Shown piece after piece: positions 17,914-51,204 of a stretch of DNA of 64,000 nt. Below the pieces are notes generated by a model, which saw nothing but the letters and a program-made list of their open reading frames with translations, made no database searches and had not been told where the DNA came from. Origin of the DNA: an uncultured Mycoplasmatota bacterium (lineage in GTDB: Bacteria; Bacillota_I; Bacilli_A; RF39; UBA660); the NCBI GenBank assembly GCA_948434005.1, contig CAOJEH010000001.1, forward strand, positions 155,880 to 219,879. Direction: 5' to 3'. A program made the translations under genes and the position numbers. Each line of letters starts with the position of its first letter. Position 1 is the stretch's first letter.

Positions 17914-17943
17914 AAAGAAGATTATCAATTATCTTCTTTTTTA
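17912..17943. terminator. Bidirectional terminator between fhs and yqeK
   Basis: aagaagat/atcttctt stem with loop tatcaatt, followed by a T-run. Confidence 0.6.
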
Positions 17944-18501
17944 ATTGTTTTTTAATAGCTCAATTAATTTCAAACAACTTGGATGAAGTTTTAGTCCTCT
18001 TGATTTTAAATTTATAGTTAAACTTTCAAAATACCTAAGTAAAGCTTTATCTAAATATCCTGAATAAACTAAATCCTTTACTTGTTTTAGAGAATCATCT
18101 AGATTATCTCTAGCAATTTTATCAGCAATGAAAATAACTTTATCAAATCTATTCATGCACACATTTCCAATTGTATGATACTTAATAGCTTTACACATAT
18201 CATCATCAAAAGAAAATAAGTCCTTAGCAACAATAGCACCAATATCAGAATGTAAAATATTTTTATAGGATTTTTCTAAATACTTATGAGATAGCTTGTT
18301 TTTTTCTATCCAAAACATATTTTCTTCTACACTAAATTCTTTAGCAATATCATGAGTAAGCCCTACTAAATAGGCTTTTTCTAAATCTATTTTATATATT
18401 TTAGCTAACTTTTTTGCTTCGTCAGCAACTTTTAAACTATGCAAATAACGAAATTTTGATAGATGCTTCTTTATATAATTTTTAATCTCATCTTTATTCA
18501 T
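17941..18501 (-). CDS. yqeK: HD-domain hydrolase YqeK family (putative Ap4A hydrolase)
   Basis: HD motif (LTHDIAKE) and an N-terminal RYLHSL histidine region. Start reassigned to the internal MNKDEIK Met; the track ORF extends to 18555. Confidence 0.7.
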   Translation of the reverse strand: MNKDEIKNYIKKHLSKFRYLHSLKVADEAKKLAKIYKIDLEKAYLVGLTHDIAKEFSVEENMFWIEKNKLSHKYLEKSYKNILHSDIGAIVAKDLFSFDDDMCKAIKYHTIGNVCMNRFDKVIFIADKIARDNLDDSLKQVKDLVYSGYLDKALLRYFESLTINLKSRGLKLHPSCLKLIELLKNN

Positions 18502-18535
18502 GTAGATTCTCCTTAAGAATATAAAAAAAGGAAAC

Positions 18536-19201
18536 TTAGCTATTTTCCTTTTCAATGTTATCTTGTTCTTTTAATGTTGAGTTTGCTTTAGGTTCATAGA
18601 TGGTAATAGTGTTTGTATAAAACTTACCATTATAGCTTACTGAATATAAATATACTCCTGCAGTTTTAGAATCAACATTGCTAAGATCTAATTTAATTCC
18701 TGCTTTAACTTCATCTGATAATTTCTCTTGAATATATAAAGAAACGTCATTAGGAATTGTTGTATTAATTTCATACGATAATGATTTAAGTGTCATATTT
18801 TCAACATTTGGTAATGGTTTAGCTTTAATAACTACTGTTCCATTATAAATTTTCTTATTATATGTAATTGTATAATTATAATTTCCTACTTCATGGGTAT
18901 TTACATTAGAAGTATCAAGTTTTAATCTTTTAATTACACTATCATCTATATCATTTGGATTTGCTAAATAGTCTTTAACATCAACACTTAATGTATTGTT
19001 AACTTCCATCTCTATATCATTTAATTTAATCTCATTATTTTTAAAATCAGAGATTCTTAACTGATTAACTTTTAATTTTCCAACTTCAGTCTTTTCAAAC
19101 CTAACCATATTAGGCATTATAAGACCACTTGAAATGCATAATGTGCCAAGTACAGCGAATACCCCAACCATAAGATGATTTAATCTATCGTTCATATACA
19201 C
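18536..19201 (-). CDS. Membrane-anchored protein with two tandem ~65-aa repeat domains
   Basis: N-terminal TM. Two repeats of the type LD(T/L)SNV..T..VG.Y.Y(T/S)(I/V)(T/S)YN.K.Y...(V/I). Confidence 0.45.
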   Translation of the reverse strand: MYMNDRLNHLMVGVFAVLGTLCISSGLIMPNMVRFEKTEVGKLKVNQLRISDFKNNEIKLNDIEMEVNNTLSVDVKDYLANPNDIDDSVIKRLKLDTSNVNTHEVGNYNYTITYNKKIYNGTVVIKAKPLPNVENMTLKSLSYEINTTIPNDVSLYIQEKLSDEVKAGIKLDLSNVDSKTAGVYLYSVSYNGKFYTNTITIYEPKANSTLKEQDNIEKENS

Positions 19202-41942: not shown

Positions 41943-43019
41943 ATGAAACTAATAGATAAATTAAAAAATGCACTTTTTGAAGAAGAATATGTAGAAGTCG
42001 AAGACAAACCAAAAAGAAAAGAAATAAAAAAAGAAAAGAAAGTAAAAGAACCACGTATAAAAGAAAAACCAGTTAAAGAGAAAAAAGAAGAGGTACTTGA
42101 AGAAAAACCTATTGCTAAAAAAATAGTGCAAGAAGAAAAAGAACCAAAGAAAGATGAATCTGTACCAAATGAAGATGAACATTTAGGAGAATCTTTAGCA
42201 TGTAAAAAGGAATTAGAAAATGATTTTAAGTTTCCAATGGTCAGTGATAATGAATTTAAAACAGATGATTATTTAGAAGAGGCTCCAAAGAAACCTAAAA
42301 AGTTTAAGAAATTTGCAGGACTAGAAAAACCACTATATCAAGGAAAAAAGAAATCAGATAATAAGCCTTATGGTTTAGATGAATTAGATTTACAAGAACA
42401 TGAATATGGAGCATACGAGAAAAAAGAAGAAAGAACTTATTTTAAACCATCACCAATAATTTCTCCAATTTATGGTATTTTAGATAAAAACTATACAAAA
42501 GATGATATAACACCTAAAAAAGAAATTAGATTAACAAGTAGTTATTCAAGAGAAAATATAAATGTTGATGATGTAAGACAAAAAGCATTCGGAACCTTAG
42601 AAAATGACATAAAAAAAGAAATAGAAGATATGGATAGCTTTGAAGATACTGAAGAGGAAGAAGATAGCCTATTAGATTTAAGTTCAGATAATAAAACTCC
42701 TGAAGTTAATAAAGTAACTATGGGAGATGCTGAAGAATATTTTGAAGACCTTGGGTTAGAATATAATGTAGATTATACAGATACATCTAGAGAAAAAGCT
42801 AGCGGTAGAAGAACTAAAGAAGACTATGATAAGGAAGAAGAAGTAACAGATACAGAAGATAATTATGATATTGAAGAAGAAGAATACGATGTAGAAAACC
42901 AAGAAGAAGTAGAAGAAAAAAGTGAAGTAAAAATATCTGATAGTAACGATAACGAAGAAAAAGAAGACGATGATGATAATTTATTTGATTTAATTGATTC
43001 AATGTATGATAAAGAATAA
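41943..43019 (+). CDS. Highly charged Lys/Glu/Asp-rich low-complexity protein
   Basis: 358 aa with KEEKK repeats and a central conserved-looking peptide (FKPSPIISPIYGIL). RBS agaggtg. Confidence 0.45.
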   Translation: MKLIDKLKNALFEEEYVEVEDKPKRKEIKKEKKVKEPRIKEKPVKEKKEEVLEEKPIAKKIVQEEKEPKKDESVPNEDEHLGESLACKKELENDFKFPMVSDNEFKTDDYLEEAPKKPKKFKKFAGLEKPLYQGKKKSDNKPYGLDELDLQEHEYGAYEKKEERTYFKPSPIISPIYGILDKNYTKDDITPKKEIRLTSSYSRENINVDDVRQKAFGTLENDIKKEIEDMDSFEDTEEEEDSLLDLSSDNKTPEVNKVTMGDAEEYFEDLGLEYNVDYTDTSREKASGRRTKEDYDKEEEVTDTEDNYDIEEEEYDVENQEEVEEKSEVKISDSNDNEEKEDDDDNLFDLIDSMYDKE

Positions 43020-43033
43020 AAAGGAGAGTAACT

Positions 43034-43321
43034 ATGGAAGAAATGAGTCTTATATTAGGTATAATAACATATATTTTTACTATAATATTATTAGTAGTTG
43101 CAATAATAATTGGAATAAGAATAATTGGTTTAACTGAAAAAGCTGATAAAGTATTAGACGATATACAAGAAAAGGTTAATTCACTAAATGGAATGTTTAG
43201 TGTTGTTAATAAGGTTTCATCAAGTATGGAATTAATTAGTAGTAAAATTGCCAATGCAATTGTTAGTTTGTTTGGTAAAGTACTAAAAAAGAAAAAGGAG
43301 GATACTGAAGAAGATGAGTAA
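43034..43321 (+). CDS. DUF948/YtxG-like small membrane protein
   Basis: N-terminal TM followed by a coiled coil. Synteny with ytxH. Confidence 0.5.
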   Translation: MEEMSLILGIITYIFTIILLVVAIIIGIRIIGLTEKADKVLDDIQEKVNSLNGMFSVVNKVSSSMELISSKIANAIVSLFGKVLKKKKEDTEEDE

Positions 43322-43721
43322 AAAAGGAACAGGGAAATTTGTTTTAGGTGCTGCTTTAGGTGCTGGATTAGGACTTTTATTTGCACCTAAGAAAGGTAAA
43401 GAGTTAAGAGCAGATTTAAAAGAAAAAATTGATGAAGTAATTGAAAATATTAAATCTTTAGATAAAGATGAAGTAAAAAAAGAATTTGATAAAAAAGTAA
43501 AAGATATCAAAAAAGAGTTAAAAGATCTTGATAAAGAAAAAGTATTAAAGATAGCGAAGAAAAAAGGAGAAGATATCAAAGCTAAAACAGAAGAATTAGT
43601 AGAATTAGCTAAAGAAAAAGGAACTCCTGTATTAAAAAAAGCTGCTGAAGGATTAAGAGATAAAGCAGTAGAAGTAACTAAAGATGTAACAAAAAAATTA
43701 GAGTCTATTGATATAAAGTAA
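43314..43721 (+). CDS. ytxH: YtxH-like general stress protein
   Basis: MSKKGTGKFVLGAALGAGLGLLFAPKKGKELRADLKEKI matches the YtxH N-terminal glycine-zipper / KSGKE motif. Lys/Glu-rich coiled coil follows. Confidence 0.65.
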   Translation: MSKKGTGKFVLGAALGAGLGLLFAPKKGKELRADLKEKIDEVIENIKSLDKDEVKKEFDKKVKDIKKELKDLDKEKVLKIAKKKGEDIKAKTEELVELAKEKGTPVLKKAAEGLRDKAVEVTKDVTKKLESIDIK

Positions 43722-43722
43722 C

Positions 43723-43751
43723 TTGAGCAATAAGCTCTTTTTTTGTATAAT
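43723..43751 (+). promoter_or_regulatory. Putative sigma-A promoter of the downstream four-gene operon
   Basis: TTGAGC at 43723-43728, a 17-nt spacer, TATAAT at 43746-43751. RBS agaggt before the ATG at 43771. Confidence 0.4.
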
Positions 43752-43770
43752 GAAACTAGAGGTATATATT

Positions 43771-44337
43771 ATGTATGAAAATATTAAAAGTCCAGAAGAA
43801 TTATTAAAGTTTATGAGTAATCATATTAATTATGGTTTTGTAGATGAAGATAAAAAGATATATGATTGTAATAATATGGATGAATTTGAAGAAGGTTGTA
43901 AAACTAAATGGAAATTATCGAGTCCAAAAAGATTAATAGATGTAGGATACGGGCATTGTTTTGACCAAGTAGAACTAGAAAGAGATTGGTTTTTAAATAA
44001 TGGATATAGTATAAAAACATTTTATATCTGGTTTGAACTTCCATATGATAATGAGTATACTACTCATACATATTTAGTATATAAGGATAAAGAAAAATAC
44101 TATTATTTTGAACACTCAGATTCATCTAACAGAGGAATTTATGAGTTTAATAGTTATGAAGAAGCGGTAAGATATAAAAAAAATAAACATATTGAATATA
44201 ATAAAAGATTTAATGTAGTAGGAGAAAAAGAACTAAAAAGTATTACTATTTATGAATATGAACAACCAAAATATGGTTTGAATTTTAATGAATTTATAGA
44301 AAATATATTATATAATGGAAAAATTATAGAAGTGTAG
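43771..44337 (+). CDS. Hypothetical protein with transglutaminase-like / papain-fold Cys...His...Asp arrangement
   Basis: GYGHCFDQVELERDWFLNNGY (Cys segment resembling TGase-like G.C..fA...R..GIPAR), then THTYLVY and FEHSD. Start at 43771 (MYENIKS) rather than the track start at 43723. Confidence 0.35.
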   Translation: MYENIKSPEELLKFMSNHINYGFVDEDKKIYDCNNMDEFEEGCKTKWKLSSPKRLIDVGYGHCFDQVELERDWFLNNGYSIKTFYIWFELPYDNEYTTHTYLVYKDKEKYYYFEHSDSSNRGIYEFNSYEEAVRYKKNKHIEYNKRFNVVGEKELKSITIYEYEQPKYGLNFNEFIENILYNGKIIEV

Positions 44338-44347
44338 AGGAATTAAT

Positions 44348-45784
44348 ATGAGAATAGGATTGGATATCGATAATGTAATTGCTAATTTTGATAAAACTGT
44401 ACTAGAAGAATTCAAAAAAGAAGATAAAAACAAAAGAAATAGTGGAATCATAAATCCAAAAGGAAGACACGTTGAGTATATGTTTGATTGGACTAAGGAA
44501 GAAGCTCAAGAGTTTTTTTATAAGAATATGGAAAGACTTGAAGAAATATTAGAACCTAGAGAAGATGCTAAATTATATATGGAAAAATTAATAGCGGATG
44601 GACATGAATTATTTTTAATATCACATCGAGTATATCCACATTATAAAAATCCAAAAGAAGTAACTTTGAAATGGTTAGAAAAATATAAAATACCATATAC
44701 AAAATTAATCTTATCAAAAGATACAGATAAAAGTTTAGAGTGTATTGAAAATAAAATCGATATCTTATTTGATGATTCTATTAATAATTGCAAAGCAGTT
44801 TTAAAAAATGGCATTTCTTCATGCATCATGGGAACAGTTCAAAATAAAAACTGTAAATCCGATTTTGAAAGAGTAGAAAATTGGGAAGAATTATATGAAA
44901 AAGTATGTGATTTAGCTGTAAAAAAGATGCCTAAATCACATATTATCCTAGATACAGATATAGATAATGAAGTAGATGACTGCTTTGCTCTAGATTATAT
45001 ATTAAATTCAAATGATAGATTGATATTAGATGCTGTAACTATCGCCCCATTTTATCATGAAAATGATATTTCTATAGAAGAAGGAATAGAAAACAGTGAA
45101 AATATTTGTAAAAGAATTTTTATGTTTAATAATATTGATAGTAAAAATATGATATATAAAGGTTCAACAGATTATTTTAAAAATGGTTATAGAAAAGAAA
45201 CCCCTGCAATTAAACGTATGGTAGAAGTAATTAATAAAAATGATTTAACTTATATCCTTTCGATAGGTGCAATAACGAATACAGCAGTATTACTATACTT
45301 ACATCCTGAATTAAAAAATAAGATTAAAGTTGTTTGGTTAGGTGGACATAGTATTATGAGCCTAGATAATAGTGAATATAATTTTAAACAGGATGTGGAA
45401 GCAGTAAAATATGTATATAATTCTAATGTTGATTTAACAGTAATTCCATGTCAAGGAGTAGCCTCAAATTTAACAACTTCAATAGAAGAATTATCTAGTT
45501 ATTTAGATTTAAACAGTAAAACAGGAAAATATTTATATAAAAGATTTTATAATGATGGAAAACATGGAATAACTAAAAGAAGAGTTATTTGGGATATTAG
45601 TGTTATTGCTTATATGATTAATCCTTATTGGTTTGATTTTAGAATAATGAATATCCCAAAAATAAATGATGATTTATCCTATGATTTTTCTAAAGAAACA
45701 AACCATCAAATAAAGTTTGCTGTAGGATTAAAACAAAATAAAATATTTTATGACTTGTTTGAAAAAGTAAATAAGAAACTATAG
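44348..45784 (+). CDS. Fusion protein: N-terminal HAD/NT5C-type 5'(3')-(deoxy)nucleotidase + C-terminal inosine-uridine-preferring nucleoside hydrolase
   Basis: N-terminus: GLDIDNVIANFD (HAD motif I DxD) and ILFDDS (motif IV). C-terminus from about aa 195: ILDTDIDNEVDDCFAL (IUNH aspartate cluster). 478 aa. Confidence 0.65.
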   Translation: MRIGLDIDNVIANFDKTVLEEFKKEDKNKRNSGIINPKGRHVEYMFDWTKEEAQEFFYKNMERLEEILEPREDAKLYMEKLIADGHELFLISHRVYPHYKNPKEVTLKWLEKYKIPYTKLILSKDTDKSLECIENKIDILFDDSINNCKAVLKNGISSCIMGTVQNKNCKSDFERVENWEELYEKVCDLAVKKMPKSHIILDTDIDNEVDDCFALDYILNSNDRLILDAVTIAPFYHENDISIEEGIENSENICKRIFMFNNIDSKNMIYKGSTDYFKNGYRKETPAIKRMVEVINKNDLTYILSIGAITNTAVLLYLHPELKNKIKVVWLGGHSIMSLDNSEYNFKQDVEAVKYVYNSNVDLTVIPCQGVASNLTTSIEELSSYLDLNSKTGKYLYKRFYNDGKHGITKRRVIWDISVIAYMINPYWFDFRIMNIPKINDDLSYDFSKETNHQIKFAVGLKQNKIFYDLFEKVNKKL

Positions 45785-45797
45785 TATAGGAGTAAAT

Positions 45798-46325
45798 ATG
45801 AAGTTATATGTAATTAGACATGGACAAACTGAAAAAAATAGAAATCATATAATCGCAGATATAGAAGAAGATATAAATGAAACAGGTATTAAACAAGCTA
45901 TAATAACTGGTAAAGAATTAAAGAAGAAGGATATAGATTTAATTATATGTTCACCTTCTAAAAGAACAAAACATACATTAAAATTACTTAATTTAGATTC
46001 TGATATAGAAGTTAAATATGATGATAGATTAATAGAAAGAGATATGGGTATTTATGAAAATAGTAAATTTGATGATTTAGATTGGAATCTATTTTGGAAT
46101 TATTATGATATAAAGTATAAAAATTTAGAATCTATGAAGAGTGTATATGATAGAATTTCAAATCTATTAGATGAGTTAAAAGAAAAATATCAAAACAAAA
46201 ATATATTATTAATAACTCATGGAGGATGTTTTAGAGCAATTTATTGGTACCTTAAAGGTATTCCAACTAATGGCAATGTTCCACATGATTTAGGTAACTG
46301 TGAGATATGGGAAGAAAGTTTATAG
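45798..46325 (+). CDS. Short histidine phosphatase (phosphoglycerate-mutase superfamily), paralog A
   Basis: YVIRHGQT (catalytic RHG) and LITHGG second His. 175 aa. Confidence 0.7.
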   Translation: MKLYVIRHGQTEKNRNHIIADIEEDINETGIKQAIITGKELKKKDIDLIICSPSKRTKHTLKLLNLDSDIEVKYDDRLIERDMGIYENSKFDDLDWNLFWNYYDIKYKNLESMKSVYDRISNLLDELKEKYQNKNILLITHGGCFRAIYWYLKGIPTNGNVPHDLGNCEIWEESL

Positions 46326-46334
46326 AGGTGTAAT

Positions 46335-46868
46335 ATGAAATTATATGTAATTAGACATGGATATACTGATACTAATAAATTAGATATTTATAATGGTAAA
46401 TTAGATGAAGATATTAATGAAGTAGGAATAAAACAAGCAGAAGAAGCATCAAAAATAGTAAAAGATTTAAAACTAGATTTAATTATTTGCTCTCCTCTTT
46501 TAAGAACAAGACATACTTGTCGAATAGTAAATAAAAATAATATTCCTGTAATATATGATGAGAGAATAGAAGAAAGAGATTGTGGAAGTCTAACTAATAC
46601 TAAAATGAATGAATTCTATTATACTGAATATTGGAATTACTACTCTAAAGTAGAGGTAGAAGGATTAGAAACAGTCCCACACCTATTTGACAGAGTTCAT
46701 AAGTTTCTAGATGAAATAAAAGAAAAATATAAGAATAAAAATATATTATTAGTAACCCATGGTGGAGTAGCAAGAGCAATACACTTCTACTTTAATGATT
46801 TACCAACAGATGGACAAGTAGAAAAATATCTACCTGATAATTGTGAAATAAGAGAGTATAACAATTAA
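46335..46868 (+). CDS. Short histidine phosphatase (PGM superfamily), paralog B
   Basis: YVIRHGYT and LVTHGG. 177 aa. Tandem with paralog A, 9-nt gap. Confidence 0.7.
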   Translation: MKLYVIRHGYTDTNKLDIYNGKLDEDINEVGIKQAEEASKIVKDLKLDLIICSPLLRTRHTCRIVNKNNIPVIYDERIEERDCGSLTNTKMNEFYYTEYWNYYSKVEVEGLETVPHLFDRVHKFLDEIKEKYKNKNILLVTHGGVARAIHFYFNDLPTDGQVEKYLPDNCEIREYNN

Positions 46869-46897
46869 TTGTAAAAATTTAGTGTGTGTGTTATAAT
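46869..46897 (+). promoter_or_regulatory. Near-consensus sigma-A promoter with extended -10 (TTGTAA-N17-TGtTATAAT)
   Basis: TTGTAA at 46869-46874, 17-nt spacer, TG at 46889-46890, TATAAT at 46892-46897. Starts immediately after the stop of the upstream gene. Confidence 0.55.
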
Positions 46898-46931: not shown

Positions 46932-47375
46932 ATGGGTTCGAATAATAAGTTAAAAGAATTATGTCTATATGCTATAGTTCCATTCATATATATAGTTGGA
47001 AGTCCATTAGTAATAGCCGGTATAGGTAGCGCAGTAGCGTATGAATTGCATGAAAAAAAAGAAGAAGTAAGTATTGAAGATACGAATACAGATAATATAT
47101 ATACTAATTCAGATGGAGAATTGTGCTGTAAATTTGATGTGGGAGAACATAGAATTATTATTTCTAGTGATGATAAATTTTATCACAAGATGGAGGCAGT
47201 AGAAGGTTACGAAATACAAAATGTTGAGATTAATGATTCAAAAAATAATAATAGAGTTACTTATATAAATAAAAAGCCTGTAGTAGCAAAAGCAACTGGA
47301 GTAAATAAAGATGGAAAAGTAGAATTTGCTAATTTTGGTGAAGTAGTAAAAAATAAAGTGAAATCCATAAAATAA
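46932..47375 (+). CDS. Hypothetical membrane-anchored protein
   Basis: 147 aa with N-terminal TM (LYAIVPFIYIVGSPLVIAGIG). RBS aaaggaa. Confidence 0.4.
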   Translation: MGSNNKLKELCLYAIVPFIYIVGSPLVIAGIGSAVAYELHEKKEEVSIEDTNTDNIYTNSDGELCCKFDVGEHRIIISSDDKFYHKMEAVEGYEIQNVEINDSKNNNRVTYINKKPVVAKATGVNKDGKVEFANFGEVVKNKVKSIK

Positions 47376-47454
47376 TACTCTTTTCATTTTAGTAATATTA
47401 TGATATATTTATAATATAATTTTCAGTGATTAATTATAAGTAGTATTTTTAAAT

Positions 47455-47625
47455 ACTTTTAGAGACTTAGTGGTTGGTGCAAACTAAGATACTTAAAAAT
47501 ATGAAATACAGATTATGAGAAAAATCGTTTATCGCGTTAAGATATTAGAGGTAGCATAAGCTATAAATTAAGGTGGTACCACGAACTATTCGTCCTTATG
47601 ATAGGGATGAATAGTTTTTATTTTA
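47455..47625 (+). promoter_or_regulatory. T-box riboswitch leader of the CYTH-tyrS operon
   Basis: AGAGAC near 47463, F-box-like CGTTA near 47534, T-box AATTAAGGTGGTACCACG at 47566-47583, and a terminator (12-bp stem aactattcgtcc/gggatgaatagtt + T-run) at 47583-47625. Confidence 0.75.
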
Positions 47626-49450: not shown

Positions 49451-50671
49451 ATGAAAAGTAATTATAAAAGAATAATAAAAGCAGTCGTTATTATATGTAT
49501 CATTGTTCTAATAATAGATATATCATATCTTGTTTATAAAAAAATAGTTAATAAACCTAAAGAAACTTCTTTTGATAGTATTAATTCCTTTGAGGTTATA
49601 GATGAAGGTTATATATCAGTAGGTAGTAACAATAATAATAAAAATAAGTATGAGAAAGCTAAAATAACTAAGTATAATAATAAATTAGAAAAAGTATGGG
49701 AAAAACTATATAATAAGAAATATAATAGTAGTTATTTTGGTATAAAACAAGATAATGACTACTTTATAGCAGTAGGAGATTATGAGTCTAATAGTGAAGA
49801 AAATAAAGATAGTGTAAGATCTGCTTTGATTGTAAAATATGATAGTGAGGGAAAAATACTAAATGAGAAGAAATTTCAAGTATTAGGTGATTCTAAATTT
49901 ACTAACTTACTAGTAATACCAGATGGTTATTTAGTAATTGGTCAAAGTATTTATGAGAATATGACGTTAGGATTATCAGACGAAGGTGGAGCTTTCTTAA
50001 TAAAATATGATAAAGATTTAAATGAAATATGGAAAAGTAATTATGGAGGCTCTAAGTCTGCAATATATAATGATTTAATAGTAGTAGATAATTACATTTA
50101 TGCAGTAGGTAAAGATGCTACAAATACAGGAATAATATCAAAGTATAATATGAATGGTGAAAGACAAAAGACTACTACCTATAGCTATACTGATAGATTT
50201 GGTTTTACTGGTATTGTAAGTATTGATAATAATTTATATGTGGTGGGTGCTAAAAAAGTTACTGAAGATAAAAATGATTATGATACAGATGGACTTATAG
50301 TTAAATATGATTTGGACTGTAATAAATTAAAAGAAACTACTTATAAAGGAAAAGGAATAGATCGCTTTAATAAGTTAATCTCAGATAATAATAATCTTGC
50401 AATAGTAGGTCAAACAGGTATTTATAATAAAGATAAATCAACAGATAAAATAAATGTATTTTCTTATAATGGTATATTTGCAATCTATAGTAAAAATTTA
50501 GATAAAATAAAACTAGATAATTATGGGACTGATATTGATGACTATTTTACAGATATAAAGAAAATAAGTAATAAATATATTGTGAGTGGATACGGAGTGT
50601 ATGAAGAAAATAGTTATATATCAAAACTAATTGAATATAAAACATCTGGTAAATTGATAGGAGAAAGCTAA
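49451..50671 (+). CDS. Membrane-anchored protein with seven degenerate ~45-aa repeats (predicted beta-propeller)
   Basis: N-terminal TM. Seven repeats of the type (Y/L)xx(V/A)(G/S)....(15-20 aa)....(I/L)(V/I)KYD..G (e.g. YFIAVGD...LIVKYDSEGK, YIYAVGK...ISKYNMNGE, LYVVGAK...LIVKYDLDCN). Confidence 0.45.
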   Translation: MKSNYKRIIKAVVIICIIVLIIDISYLVYKKIVNKPKETSFDSINSFEVIDEGYISVGSNNNNKNKYEKAKITKYNNKLEKVWEKLYNKKYNSSYFGIKQDNDYFIAVGDYESNSEENKDSVRSALIVKYDSEGKILNEKKFQVLGDSKFTNLLVIPDGYLVIGQSIYENMTLGLSDEGGAFLIKYDKDLNEIWKSNYGGSKSAIYNDLIVVDNYIYAVGKDATNTGIISKYNMNGERQKTTTYSYTDRFGFTGIVSIDNNLYVVGAKKVTEDKNDYDTDGLIVKYDLDCNKLKETTYKGKGIDRFNKLISDNNNLAIVGQTGIYNKDKSTDKINVFSYNGIFAIYSKNLDKIKLDNYGTDIDDYFTDIKKISNKYIVSGYGVYEENSYISKLIEYKTSGKLIGES

Positions 50672-51204
50672 TGAAAATTGTGTTAGTAAGACATGGGAAA
50701 ACGGATTATAATGTTGAATGTAAAACACAAGGTAGAATAAATATTCCTTTAAATGATTCAGGAAGAAGAGAAGTTCAAAAATTAAAATATAAGATGAAGG
50801 ATATGGATTTTGATATATGTTTTTCCTCTCCCTTAATTAGAGCGGTAGAAACAGCTATGATTTTAGTAGGAGATAGAGTAGAGATAAAAATAGATGATAG
50901 ATTAATTGAAAGAAATATGGGTAATCAAGAAGGTATGCCATATAAAGACTATGATGGGAATGCACATTGGGATTATAATCTTAATTTAGATGATAATGGT
51001 ATTGAACCTGTACAAGATATAATAAAAAGAGCATCAGATTTTATAGATTATTTAAAAGAAAATTATAATGATAAAGATATATTAATAGTTTCGCATGGTG
51101 CAACTATAAGAGCACTACATCATATACTTCATAATACTGATTTAAATAGTAATTTATCAGATTTTAGTATAGGAAATTGTTATACAGAAACAATAATAAT
51201 ATAA
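50671..51204 (+). CDS. Short histidine phosphatase (PGM superfamily), paralog C
   Basis: IVLVRHGKT (RHG) and IVSHGA. 177 aa. Its ATG overlaps the stop of the upstream repeat protein (taATGa). Confidence 0.7.
   Translation: MKIVLVRHGKTDYNVECKTQGRINIPLNDSGRREVQKLKYKMKDMDFDICFSSPLIRAVETAMILVGDRVEIKIDDRLIERNMGNQEGMPYKDYDGNAHWDYNLNLDDNGIEPVQDIIKRASDFIDYLKENYNDKDILIVSHGATIRALHHILHNTDLNSNLSDFSIGNCYTETIII

Follow-up and report, generated by a model that had tools for sequence, protein, structure and literature searches.

We analyzed a 64-kb stretch of contig CAOJEH010000001.1 from an uncultured Mycoplasmatota bacterium (hereafter, the window) and found that a compact row of four genes is anchored by gene 2, whose product joins an N-terminal NT5C-type nucleotidase of the HAD superfamily to a C-terminal domain with the inosine-uridine nucleoside hydrolase (IUNH) fold. 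This fusion is a genuine and widespread architecture, uncharacterized to date, and its sequence predicts a bifunctional enzyme with an atypical nucleoside-hydrolase site. Judged from gene neighborhoods in relatives, the cluster is a conserved core of the fusion and one or more histidine phosphatases (here genes 3 and 4), usually accompanied by an HD protein, to which gene 1 has been added as a passenger. We favor, with moderate confidence, the view that the locus serves as a cytoplasmic module for ribonucleotide catabolism or salvage. A first-pass annotation of this DNA had proposed a complete four-gene pathway dismantling nucleotides to bases. The core of that proposal, the fusion with its histidine phosphatases, has held up; gene 1 appears to be specific to the lineage, and the HD partner that is usual elsewhere is not in the window.

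Both halves of the fusion score above the Pfam cut-offs, as the first-pass annotation had anticipated. Residues 3-186 match NT5C (PF06941) with 54.9 bits (E 1.3e-14; cut-off 24.8) over 171 of the 180 model positions (4-174), and residues 199-432 match IU_nuc_hydro (PF01156) with 72.8 bits (cut-off 34.2). The motifs quoted at the outset are also present (DIDN at 6-9, FDDS at 141-144 and DTDIDNEVDD at 202-211). In the N-terminal half, HAD motifs I (D6-I-D8-N-V), II (S92), III (K128) and IV (D142-D143) can all be assigned, with a helical cap between motifs I and II. To gauge conservation of the active sites, we aligned 30 homologues that are 48-91% identical to the fusion (percent identities of relatives refer to the window fusion protein unless stated otherwise). 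D6, D8, R94, K128 and D143 are invariant in this alignment, position 92 is Ser or Thr in all sequences, and position 142 is Asp or Glu. The NT5C domain is too divergent for any sequence match among solved PDB structures.

The C-terminal half is equally well conserved among the 30 homologues, with D202, D204, D210, D211, T310, N311, E343, N345 and D416 invariant. A profile search aligns its metal and ribose ligands to the canonical positions of solved nucleoside hydrolases, with D416 as the third Asp ligand of Ca2+, T310-N311 as the GxxTN backbone ligand, and E343/N345 as the ribose contacts of the E-x-N motif. An AlphaFold (AF2) model of the fusion (pLDDT 89.5, pTM 0.86) points the same way. 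When its C-terminal half was compared with known structures by Foldseek, all 50 of the listed matches were nucleoside hydrolases, among them RihA, RihC, IU-NH and plant NRh at target TM values of 0.69-0.77, with E 5.9e-16 and target TM 0.77 for RihC of L. reuteri. Conservation of both active sites argues that neither half is a decayed module, and we consider the fusion real and, as far as its residues predict, catalytically plausible in both halves.

The nucleoside-hydrolase site is nevertheless unlike that of the classical enzymes. The fingerprint DxDxxxDD is replaced by D202-T-D204-I-D-N207-E208-V-D210-D211, in which the four Asp residues align, two residues are inserted, and the Asn-Glu pair is invariant. 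The His that precedes the last Asp and serves as the leaving-group acid of group-I enzymes is replaced by an invariant Trp415. None of the NCBIfam equivalog models RihA, RihB, RihC or UriH reaches its cut-off, the best being RihC with 62.3 bits against 382. Trp in place of this His is the arrangement of active, purine-specific IAG/IG (group-II) enzymes, in which the base is activated by stacking, and a Glu inside the fingerprint altered the bound metal in a Sulfolobus enzyme (PMC8910321). By analogy, the Trp415-Asp416 pair hints at leaving-group activation by aromatic stacking, and so at a purine riboside or another aromatic riboside as substrate.

These departures could also be read to mean that the IUNH-like domain is not a hydrolase at all, and instead binds ribose or ADP-ribose to target or regulate the HAD phosphatase, as in Sde_0182 or XopQ. 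The non-canonical fingerprint and the missing catalytic His would fit a binding module, some homologues of the fusion also match the Sde182 NH-like model PF07632, and inactive nucleoside-hydrolase-like proteins are known (PMC8910321). We think this very unlikely, given that no variation is seen in any of the Ca2+ and ribose ligands or in the Asp corresponding to the general base, that the Trp-Asp pair is that of active purine-specific enzymes, and that the window fusion itself has no match to PF07632 at E <= 0.01.

The ribose requirement of the C-terminal domain also bears on the substrate of the N-terminal one. Characterized nucleoside hydrolases are strictly ribose-specific and need the 2´-, 3´- and 5´-OH groups (PMC8910321). 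A deoxyribonucleotide preference of the N-terminal domain is thus unlikely, because its partner would require ribose. The fusion alone had been expected to convert (d)NMP (ribo- or deoxyribonucleoside monophosphate) to base plus sugar; the route from NMP is plausible, deoxy substrates are doubtful, and since all three ribose hydroxyls are needed, "(d)NMP" should probably read "NMP".

The fusion is common in sequence databases. A word-indexed search of protein clusters returned 2,222 matches among the 8,000 candidates scored, and the best 120 all cover nearly the full query, most being about 470-480 aa long and nearly all carrying both Pfam domains. When one genome per GTDB species was scanned, 460 proved to encode the fusion, nearly all of them uncultured gut or rumen metagenome-assembled genomes labeled Clostridium sp., Clostridia, Bacilli or Tenericutes; one fusion locus comes from a 1.2-Mb circular genome. 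The best match among the GTDB genomes is only 61% identical, which indicates that the lineage of the window has no close species representative in that set. The architecture had been thought undescribed, and this holds for the searchable literature, in which we found no publication on an NT5C-IUNH protein, but not for sequence space, where it is not unusual; one JGI record even labels it [quoted passage not shown]. The sole multidomain nucleoside-hydrolase protein mentioned in a 2022 review of N-ribohydrolases is Sde_0182 (PMC8910321). A 611-aa metagenome protein (P0062) extends the architecture to a triple fusion of NT5C, IUNH and a C-terminal Nuc_deoxyri_tr2 domain (nucleoside 2-deoxyribosyltransferase-like), and in two loci (L083 and L084) a stand-alone Nuc_deoxyri_tr2 gene directly follows the fusion gene.

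This distribution speaks against an anti-phage function acting by nucleotide depletion, which had been among the roles first proposed. The sole argument for such a system is the general idea that several defense systems deplete nucleotides. On the other side, none of six proteins (the products of genes 1-4 and of two downstream genes) matches PADLOC, the window neighbors are housekeeping genes (YtxH, TrmB, FemAB, T-box-tyrS), and the locus has no sensor or regulatory component. Within its lineage, the fusion is near-universal (460 species) rather than patchy, and it occurs in only two of 2.9 million viral contigs, with gene 1 in a single viral-contig locus. We give this explanation almost no credence and rejected a defense role.

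To ask what accompanies the fusion, we collected 82 loci and clustered the neighboring genes without prior labels, taking partner counts from the 68 loci with at least 2.5 kb downstream. The recurrent partners are an HD/HDIG protein of about 200 aa, found on the same strand in 41 of the 68 loci (60%), and a histidine phosphatase, found in 27 (40%). Thirty loci have only the HD protein, 16 only the histidine phosphatase, 11 both and 11 neither, such that 57 of the 68 have one or both. The partners may be adjacent to the fusion, upstream of it, or separated from it by GDPD, GNAT_C, PHP, YgjV or SemiSWEET genes, and linkage that persists in so many arrangements argues for selection rather than inherited synteny. 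No orthologue of the HD partner is present in the window; the sole HD-type gene there (17941-18555) is of YqeK type and was dismissed as a candidate. Assignment of the HD partner as a YpgQ-like NTP pyrophosphohydrolase or an alarmone hydrolase was likewise set aside, as it finds no sequence support beyond generic HD/HDIG matches.

Closer relatives show which parts of the row travel together. Strains whose fusion is identical, and two contigs at 91%, keep the full row from ytxH through gene 1, the fusion, gene 3 and gene 4 to the 147-aa open reading frame (ORF). At 75% (L087), the gene upstream of the fusion is unrelated to gene 1, and the fusion is followed by an Imp-YgjV membrane protein and then by phosphatases of the gene-3 and gene-4 types. 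At 59% (L176), the fusion is followed by a gene-4-type phosphatase and an HD protein with overlapping stop and start codons. The fusion, gene 3 and gene 4 are thus retained together at both 91% and 75% fusion identity, and the expected co-conservation of a four-gene operon is borne out for genes 2-4 and not for gene 1, for which none of 80 loci from a metagenome scan with gene 1 as the anchor contains the fusion. In the 59% locus, the divergent upstream neighbor (L176:626-1579, minus strand) is a full-length match to Pfam HMUDK_hel (E 1e-104). HMUDK_hel is the helical domain of 5-hydroxymethyldeoxyuridine (5-hmdU) DNA kinase, a family known from phage DNA hypermodification.

Genes 3 and 4 both encode branch-1 histidine phosphatases, matching His_Phos_1 (PF00300) with 122.7 and 125.9 bits (cut-off 21.7). 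The RHG motif is at residues 7-9 in each, and the catalytic sets are complete (R7-H8-G9, R56, E80 and H141 in gene 3; R7-H8-G9, R57, E80 and H142 in gene 4). The two had been called duplicated. They are indeed tandem paralogues, but are only 49% identical and have their own orthologues beside the fusion in different genomes, the gene-3 type (54-56% identical) in about eight loci and the gene-4 type (61-70% identical) in about 16, often with overlapping stop and start codons; they are therefore an old pair and not a recent duplication. The best NCBIfam model for both is CobC (TIGR03162), with 103 and 107 bits against an equivalog cut-off of 162.9. A third branch-1 histidine phosphatase of 177 aa, encoded about 4 kb downstream and unlinked to the cluster (50671-51204), has a similarly sub-threshold CobC-like score (104 bits). 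The CobC match is consequently not specific to genes 3 and 4, and we rejected their assignment as CobC/alpha-ribazole phosphatases. In one strain with a 100% identical fusion protein, a 179-nt out-of-frame deletion (L169:4833-4960, compared with window 46259-46437) joins gene 3 at about codon 155 to gene 4 at about codon 35, so that gene 4 loses its catalytic RHG; either one phosphatase has been lost naturally or the junction is an artefact of assembly.

These observations suggest the following model, in which the domain identities, conserved catalytic residues, fold and neighborhood statistics are shown by the data and the substrates, reaction order, co-transcription and physiological role are inferred from them. 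The HAD/NT5C domain of the fusion would remove the phosphate from a nucleoside monophosphate, and the IUNH-fold domain would then cleave the N-glycosidic bond of the resulting ribonucleoside to release free base and ribose. The base could be re-used by phosphoribosyltransferases, and the ribose could serve as a carbon source. Genes 3 and 4 might act as accessory phosphomonoesterases that widen entry into the route, for example to 2´- or 3´-NMPs from RNA turnover or to other sugar phosphates, and the HD phosphohydrolase might fill a further upstream step in most other genomes. Gene 1 would be an enzyme of the Cys-His-acid type (amidase, esterase or acyl-transferase) recruited to the row in this lineage alone. 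A role in nucleotide breakdown or salvage inside the cell is favored because two consecutive steps are fused, a fusion maintained in 460 species genomes, because both active sites are conserved, because the partners are phosphohydrolases and the occasional neighbors nucleotide or phosphoester hydrolases, and because no signal peptide is found in any of the four proteins. In the fusion, there is no room for one, as a catalytic Asp is already at residue 6.

Several points weigh against this model. NT5C is named for deoxyribonucleotidases and nucleoside hydrolases need the ribose hydroxyls (PMC8910321), such that the two halves match only if the N-terminal domain takes ribonucleotides. The Asn-Glu insertion and the replacement of His by Trp could mean that specificity, or even activity, differs from that of the classical enzymes. 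An intracellular route that first dephosphorylates and then hydrolyzes would be futile unless regulated. Known riboswitches give no clue to the ligand: Rfam searches of positions 40-50 kb of the window and of 13 loci in which a long spacer precedes the fusion placed none upstream of it and returned only the T-box of tyrS, a tRNA and part of a group II intron. Finally, no phosphoribosyltransferase, ribokinase or nucleoside transporter is consistently found near the fusion among the 82 loci.

Less can be said about gene 1, which had been described as having a transglutaminase- or papain-like Cys-His-Asp arrangement. It has no Pfam match even at E <= 1 and none in NCBIfam or among PDB sequences, and its kinship emerges from relatives and from the predicted fold. 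Six of 38 relatives match Pfam DUF553 ("transglutaminase-like"; best E 4.7e-06). The AF2 model has a pLDDT of 96.6, and nearly all of its listed Foldseek matches are transglutaminase-like Cys enzymes (PeiP, CPR-C4, vasohibin, LapG, SseI, arylamine N-acetyltransferases and PNGase), though the scores are weak (E >= 2e-3, TM about 0.4). The motifs initially pointed out are present (GHCFDQ at 61-66, THTY at 98-101 and FEHSD at 113-117) and contain the putative catalytic residues Cys63, His99, Glu114 and Asp117. In the model, Cys63 starts a helix (63-76), His99 starts a strand (99-106) and Glu114 ends another (109-114). His99 and Glu114 do not vary across the family; Cys63 is conserved to at least 90% and is substituted in one or more members. 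Gene 1 belongs to an uncharacterized family distantly related to DUF553, and the transglutaminase-like fold first guessed for it is therefore reasonable.

The gene-1 domain is itself abundant, with 1,569 representative clusters at E <= 1e-3, and it occurs fused to NUDIX (P0220), Cof-type HAD (P0244) and GNAT (P0252, P0317) domains. These fusions hint at small-molecule phospho- or acyl-metabolism and provide no tie to the pathway of the nucleotidase-hydrolase fusion. In four long proteins (P0294, P0295, P0296 and P0317; 1,045-1,669 aa), a gene-1-type domain lies mid-protein, about 150-300 residues C-terminal to a canonical Transglut_core or DUF553 domain, giving tandem transglutaminase-like modules. 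Of the 82 fusion loci, only L002 and L003, which represent one environmental lineage, have gene 1 nearby (following the fusion, an HD gene and NT5C in turn), with a weak instance in L038. No consistent partner of gene 1 was found in 79 metagenome loci, where its neighbors are variable housekeeping or mobile genes. On this neighborhood evidence, gene 1 is a lineage-specific passenger whose link to the pathway seems weak.

The genes found sporadically near the fusion, or as extra domains of it, are stand-alone NT5C, NUDIX, LOG/SLOG, Nuc_deoxyri_tr2, PHP, GDPD and EEP, all nucleotide or phosphoester hydrolases. They bring up the possibility of house-cleaning, in which non-canonical or modified nucleotides (damaged bases, or modified NMPs from tRNA and rRNA turnover) would be taken to base and ribose to prevent their re-incorporation, with gene 1 removing an acyl or amide decoration from the nucleoside. 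Families with sanitation roles are indeed among the accessory neighbors (NUDIX, HD, LOG/SLOG and the DNPH1-like Nuc_deoxyri_tr2), one locus (L001) has genes of the Ham1p-like ITPase and ASCH types a few positions upstream, with the same ORF pattern in another (L006), the gene-1 domain has NUDIX, Cof-type HAD and GNAT fusions, and GNAT/GNAT_C genes recur beside the nucleotidase-hydrolase fusion. However, each accessory gene is found in only 1-11 of the 82 loci, gene 1 is not co-conserved with the fusion, the ASCH label for gene 1 neighbors comes from inspection of one sequence, and no specificity determinant can be read from the protein. House-cleaning is therefore possible, if unlikely.

Small membrane proteins beside the fusion raise another option. 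In at least three lineages (L087:1694-2215, L016:5008-5523 and L061), a protein of the Imp-YgjV family, which is uncharacterized in the literature, separates the fusion from the histidine phosphatase, and SemiSWEET/PQ-loop proteins adjoin the fusion in about four other loci; either may be a transporter for a substrate or product. Both belong to the same fold group as the PnuC riboside transporters. It is conceivable that the module handles pyridine ribosides, with nicotinamide or nicotinic acid mononucleotide (NMN or NaMN) dephosphorylated to nicotinamide riboside and this hydrolyzed to nicotinamide and ribose, in parallel with yeast Sdt1/Isn1 plus Urh1 and with the Trichomonas riboside hydrolase. 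For one enzyme of the IUNH family, specificity is highest with nicotinamide riboside (PMC10474468), and the HD partner weakly matches an HD domain fused to NadD. This match is, however, far below the cut-off (17.8 bits against 315), the transporter link applies to only a few loci, and none of pncA, pncB, nadD, nadE or nadR is among the recurrent neighbors of the fusion, all of which make a pyridine-riboside route rather improbable. We rank bulk salvage first, sanitation second and turnover of NMN and nicotinamide riboside third.

A link to sporulation or germination had also been suggested, and an analogy exists in the exosporium IunH of Bacillus, which destroys the germinants inosine and adenosine. 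The window (G+C content 25.7%) contains two FemAB genes and an alpha/beta small acid-soluble spore protein (SASP), which marks the host as a Gram-positive spore former, Spore_II_R and cotJ-like genes are near the fusion in some loci, and the Bacillus nucleoside hydrolase sets a precedent (PMC8910321). Yet the linkage of these sporulation genes to the fusion is inconsistent, features for export or for targeting to the exosporium are absent from the proteins, and the only promoter-like site is of the sigma-70/sigma-A type. We regard nucleoside turnover linked to sporulation or germination as highly improbable for this locus.

The organization of the locus (Table 1) would be compatible with transcription of genes 1-4 as one unit. 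The four ORFs are on one strand between 43771 and 46868, and their tight packing downstream of ytxH with gaps of 9-13 nt, noted in the first-pass annotation, is confirmed (10, 13 and 9 nt). A Shine-Dalgarno-like GGAG/GAGG precedes every start. For gene 1, the most plausible start is the ATG at 43771, which follows AGAGGT and yields a protein of 188 aa, one fewer than first reported (189); the TTG at 43723 with which the mechanical ORF begins coincides with the -35-like hexamer. Between 42900 and 47580, the search for terminators gave no candidate. By these features the row is a candidate operon, with the reservation that genes 2-4 are co-conserved and gene 1 is not.

Table 1. Features of the fusion locus and its flanks (window coordinates).
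Feature	Position	Strand	Description
ytxH	43314-43721		Pfam YtxH 64.6 bits; upstream neighbor of gene 1
Sigma-70-like promoter candidate TTGAGC-17-TATAAT	43723-43751	+	Within the 49-nt ytxH/gene-1 spacer; 10/12 consensus matches
Gene 1	43771-44337	+	188 aa; transglutaminase-fold candidate
Gene 2	44348-45784	+	478 aa; NT5C + IU_nuc_hydro fusion; cluster anchor
Gene 2, N-terminal HAD/NT5C-type nucleotidase domain	44354-44905	+	Residues 3-186
Gene 2, C-terminal IUNH-fold N-ribohydrolase domain (predicted)	44936-45781	+	Residues ~197-478
Gene 3	45798-46325	+	175 aa; branch-1 histidine phosphatase
Gene 4	46335-46868	+	177 aa; branch-1 histidine phosphatase
Second promoter-like site TTGTAA-17-(TG)TTATAAT	46869-46897	+	Extended -10; precedes the 147-aa ORF
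147-aa membrane-anchored ORF	46932-47375	+	Directly downstream of gene 4
T-box leader	47417-47600	+	Rfam RF00230 99.8 bits; opens the CYTH-tyrS unit
T-box terminator-like hairpin	47583-47617

The promoter proposed upstream of gene 1, TTGAGC-N17-TATAAT, is present, but promoter-like sites are no more numerous in this region than in shuffled sequence (36 against 41.8 +/- 5.8), and so the motif alone proves nothing. Its position in the 49-nt gap ahead of gene 1 and its conservation are more informative. In two relatives whose proteins are 87-91% identical (L085 and L086), the spacer is 100% identical from the ytxH stop codon through TATAAT, with three substitutions between the -10 element and the gene 1 ATG; identity here in spite of diverged proteins suggests a functional element. 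The candidate overlaps a weak GAGC-aataa-GCTC hairpin followed by a T7 run, with an unremarkable fold energy (z = -0.93), which could terminate ytxH. At the other end, the -10 element of the second promoter-like site is also kept in L085 and L086, which suggests that the 147-aa ORF can be transcribed separately. The T-box leader marks the downstream limit, beyond which CYTH and tyrS form a separate unit. This tyrosyl-type T-box directly precedes the CYTH-domain gene (class-IV adenylate cyclase/triphosphatase-like; to 48182) and not tyrS itself, and the CYTH stop overlaps the tyrS start (from 48179), such that the CYTH protein appears to be co-regulated with tyrS by tRNA charging.

Two further features of the flanking regions were observed. 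In the window, a 358-aa protein extremely rich in Lys, Glu and Asp and without a Pfam match is encoded at 41943-43019, just upstream of a DUF948-like gene and ytxH, in a synteny kept in three relatives (L085, L086 and L168). In 16 of the 82 loci (for example L019, L025, L028, L047 and L050), a large serine recombinase of about 516 aa is encoded about 1.4 kb downstream of the fusion/HD pair and is adjoined by genes resembling the spore-coat cotJ operon; the arrangement could represent an intervening element linked to sporulation, or a hot spot for integration.

If the proposed salvage function is correct, a large group of uncultured gut bacteria has a compact, probably channeled route from nucleotide to base plus ribose. 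Some bacteria that carry the fusion have very small genomes and are expected to live on salvage, like the parasitic protozoa that have nucleoside hydrolases; base salvage by nucleoside hydrolases is typical of auxotrophic parasites (PMC10474468). The fusion would then be a useful marker of nucleotide auxotrophy and a candidate player in the turnover of purines and pyrimidines in the gut. Enzymologists would find in it a naturally occurring variant of the nucleoside hydrolases whose metal fingerprint is altered. It opens no long-standing question, and we see no sign of a new biological principle or of immunity. A bolder and, in our judgment, doubtful idea is that the fusion anchors an unrecognized modular cluster for disposal of riboside nucleotides, typical of a large clade of uncultured, small-genome, spore-forming gut Firmicutes, with its hydrolase site tuned to a non-standard riboside (a modified nucleoside from RNA turnover, or nicotinamide riboside), and that gene 1 is the founder of a new amidohydrolase family with the transglutaminase fold, whose substrates would be acylated nucleosides or derivatives of nucleotide sugars. 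The last part is hinted at by the independent fusions of the gene-1 domain to NUDIX, Cof-HAD and GNAT.

Comparison with known systems places each part of the locus. Gene 1 would share its fold, and the order and spacing of Cys, His and acidic residue, with transglutaminase-like cysteine proteases or amidases (PeiP/PeiW, CPR-C4, vasohibin, LapG; DUF553 and Transglut_core in Pfam), from which it differs in having no Pfam match, a TM of only about 0.4 and a Cys that is replaced in at least one family member. The N-terminal domain of the fusion resembles the NT5C/NT5M 5´(3´)-deoxyribonucleotidases in its coverage of the model (171 of 180 positions), in all four HAD motifs and in the helical cap, and differs from them in lacking a sequence match to solved structures and in being joined to a domain that would require ribose. 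The C-terminal domain shares with RihA, RihB and RihC and with protozoan IU-NH and IAG-NH the fold (TM 0.69-0.77), the Asp cluster for Ca2+, the GxxTN loop, the ExN contacts and the last Asp, and with the purine-specific IAG/IG enzymes the Trp-Asp pair. Unlike the Rih and IU-NH enzymes, it has DTDxxNExDD for DxDxxxDD, no His before the last Asp and a phosphatase attached, and it scores far below the RihA/RihB/RihC equivalog cut-offs (62 bits against 382).

At the level of the pathway, the net freeing of a base from a nucleotide is also achieved by PpnN/LOG, AMP nucleosidase and DNPH1/Nuc_deoxyri_tr, and LOG/SLOG and Nuc_deoxyri_tr2 adjoin or are fused to the fusion in a few genomes. These single-step N-glycosidases cut the nucleotide directly and yield ribose-5-phosphate, whereas the fusion would dephosphorylate first and yield ribose. 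The closest parallel in reaction order is ribose salvage in starved yeast, in which the HAD nucleotidase Phm8 is followed by the IUNH-family enzyme Urh1 (PMC4039369). The two superfamilies are the same, and the consecutive steps from NMP to nucleoside to base plus ribose, as well as the cytoplasmic location, would be shared too. The HAD domain of the fusion is of the NT5C subfamily and not of the Phm8/Sdt1 type, and what yeast has as separate, unlinked proteins is found here as one 478-aa polypeptide clustered with histidine phosphatases.

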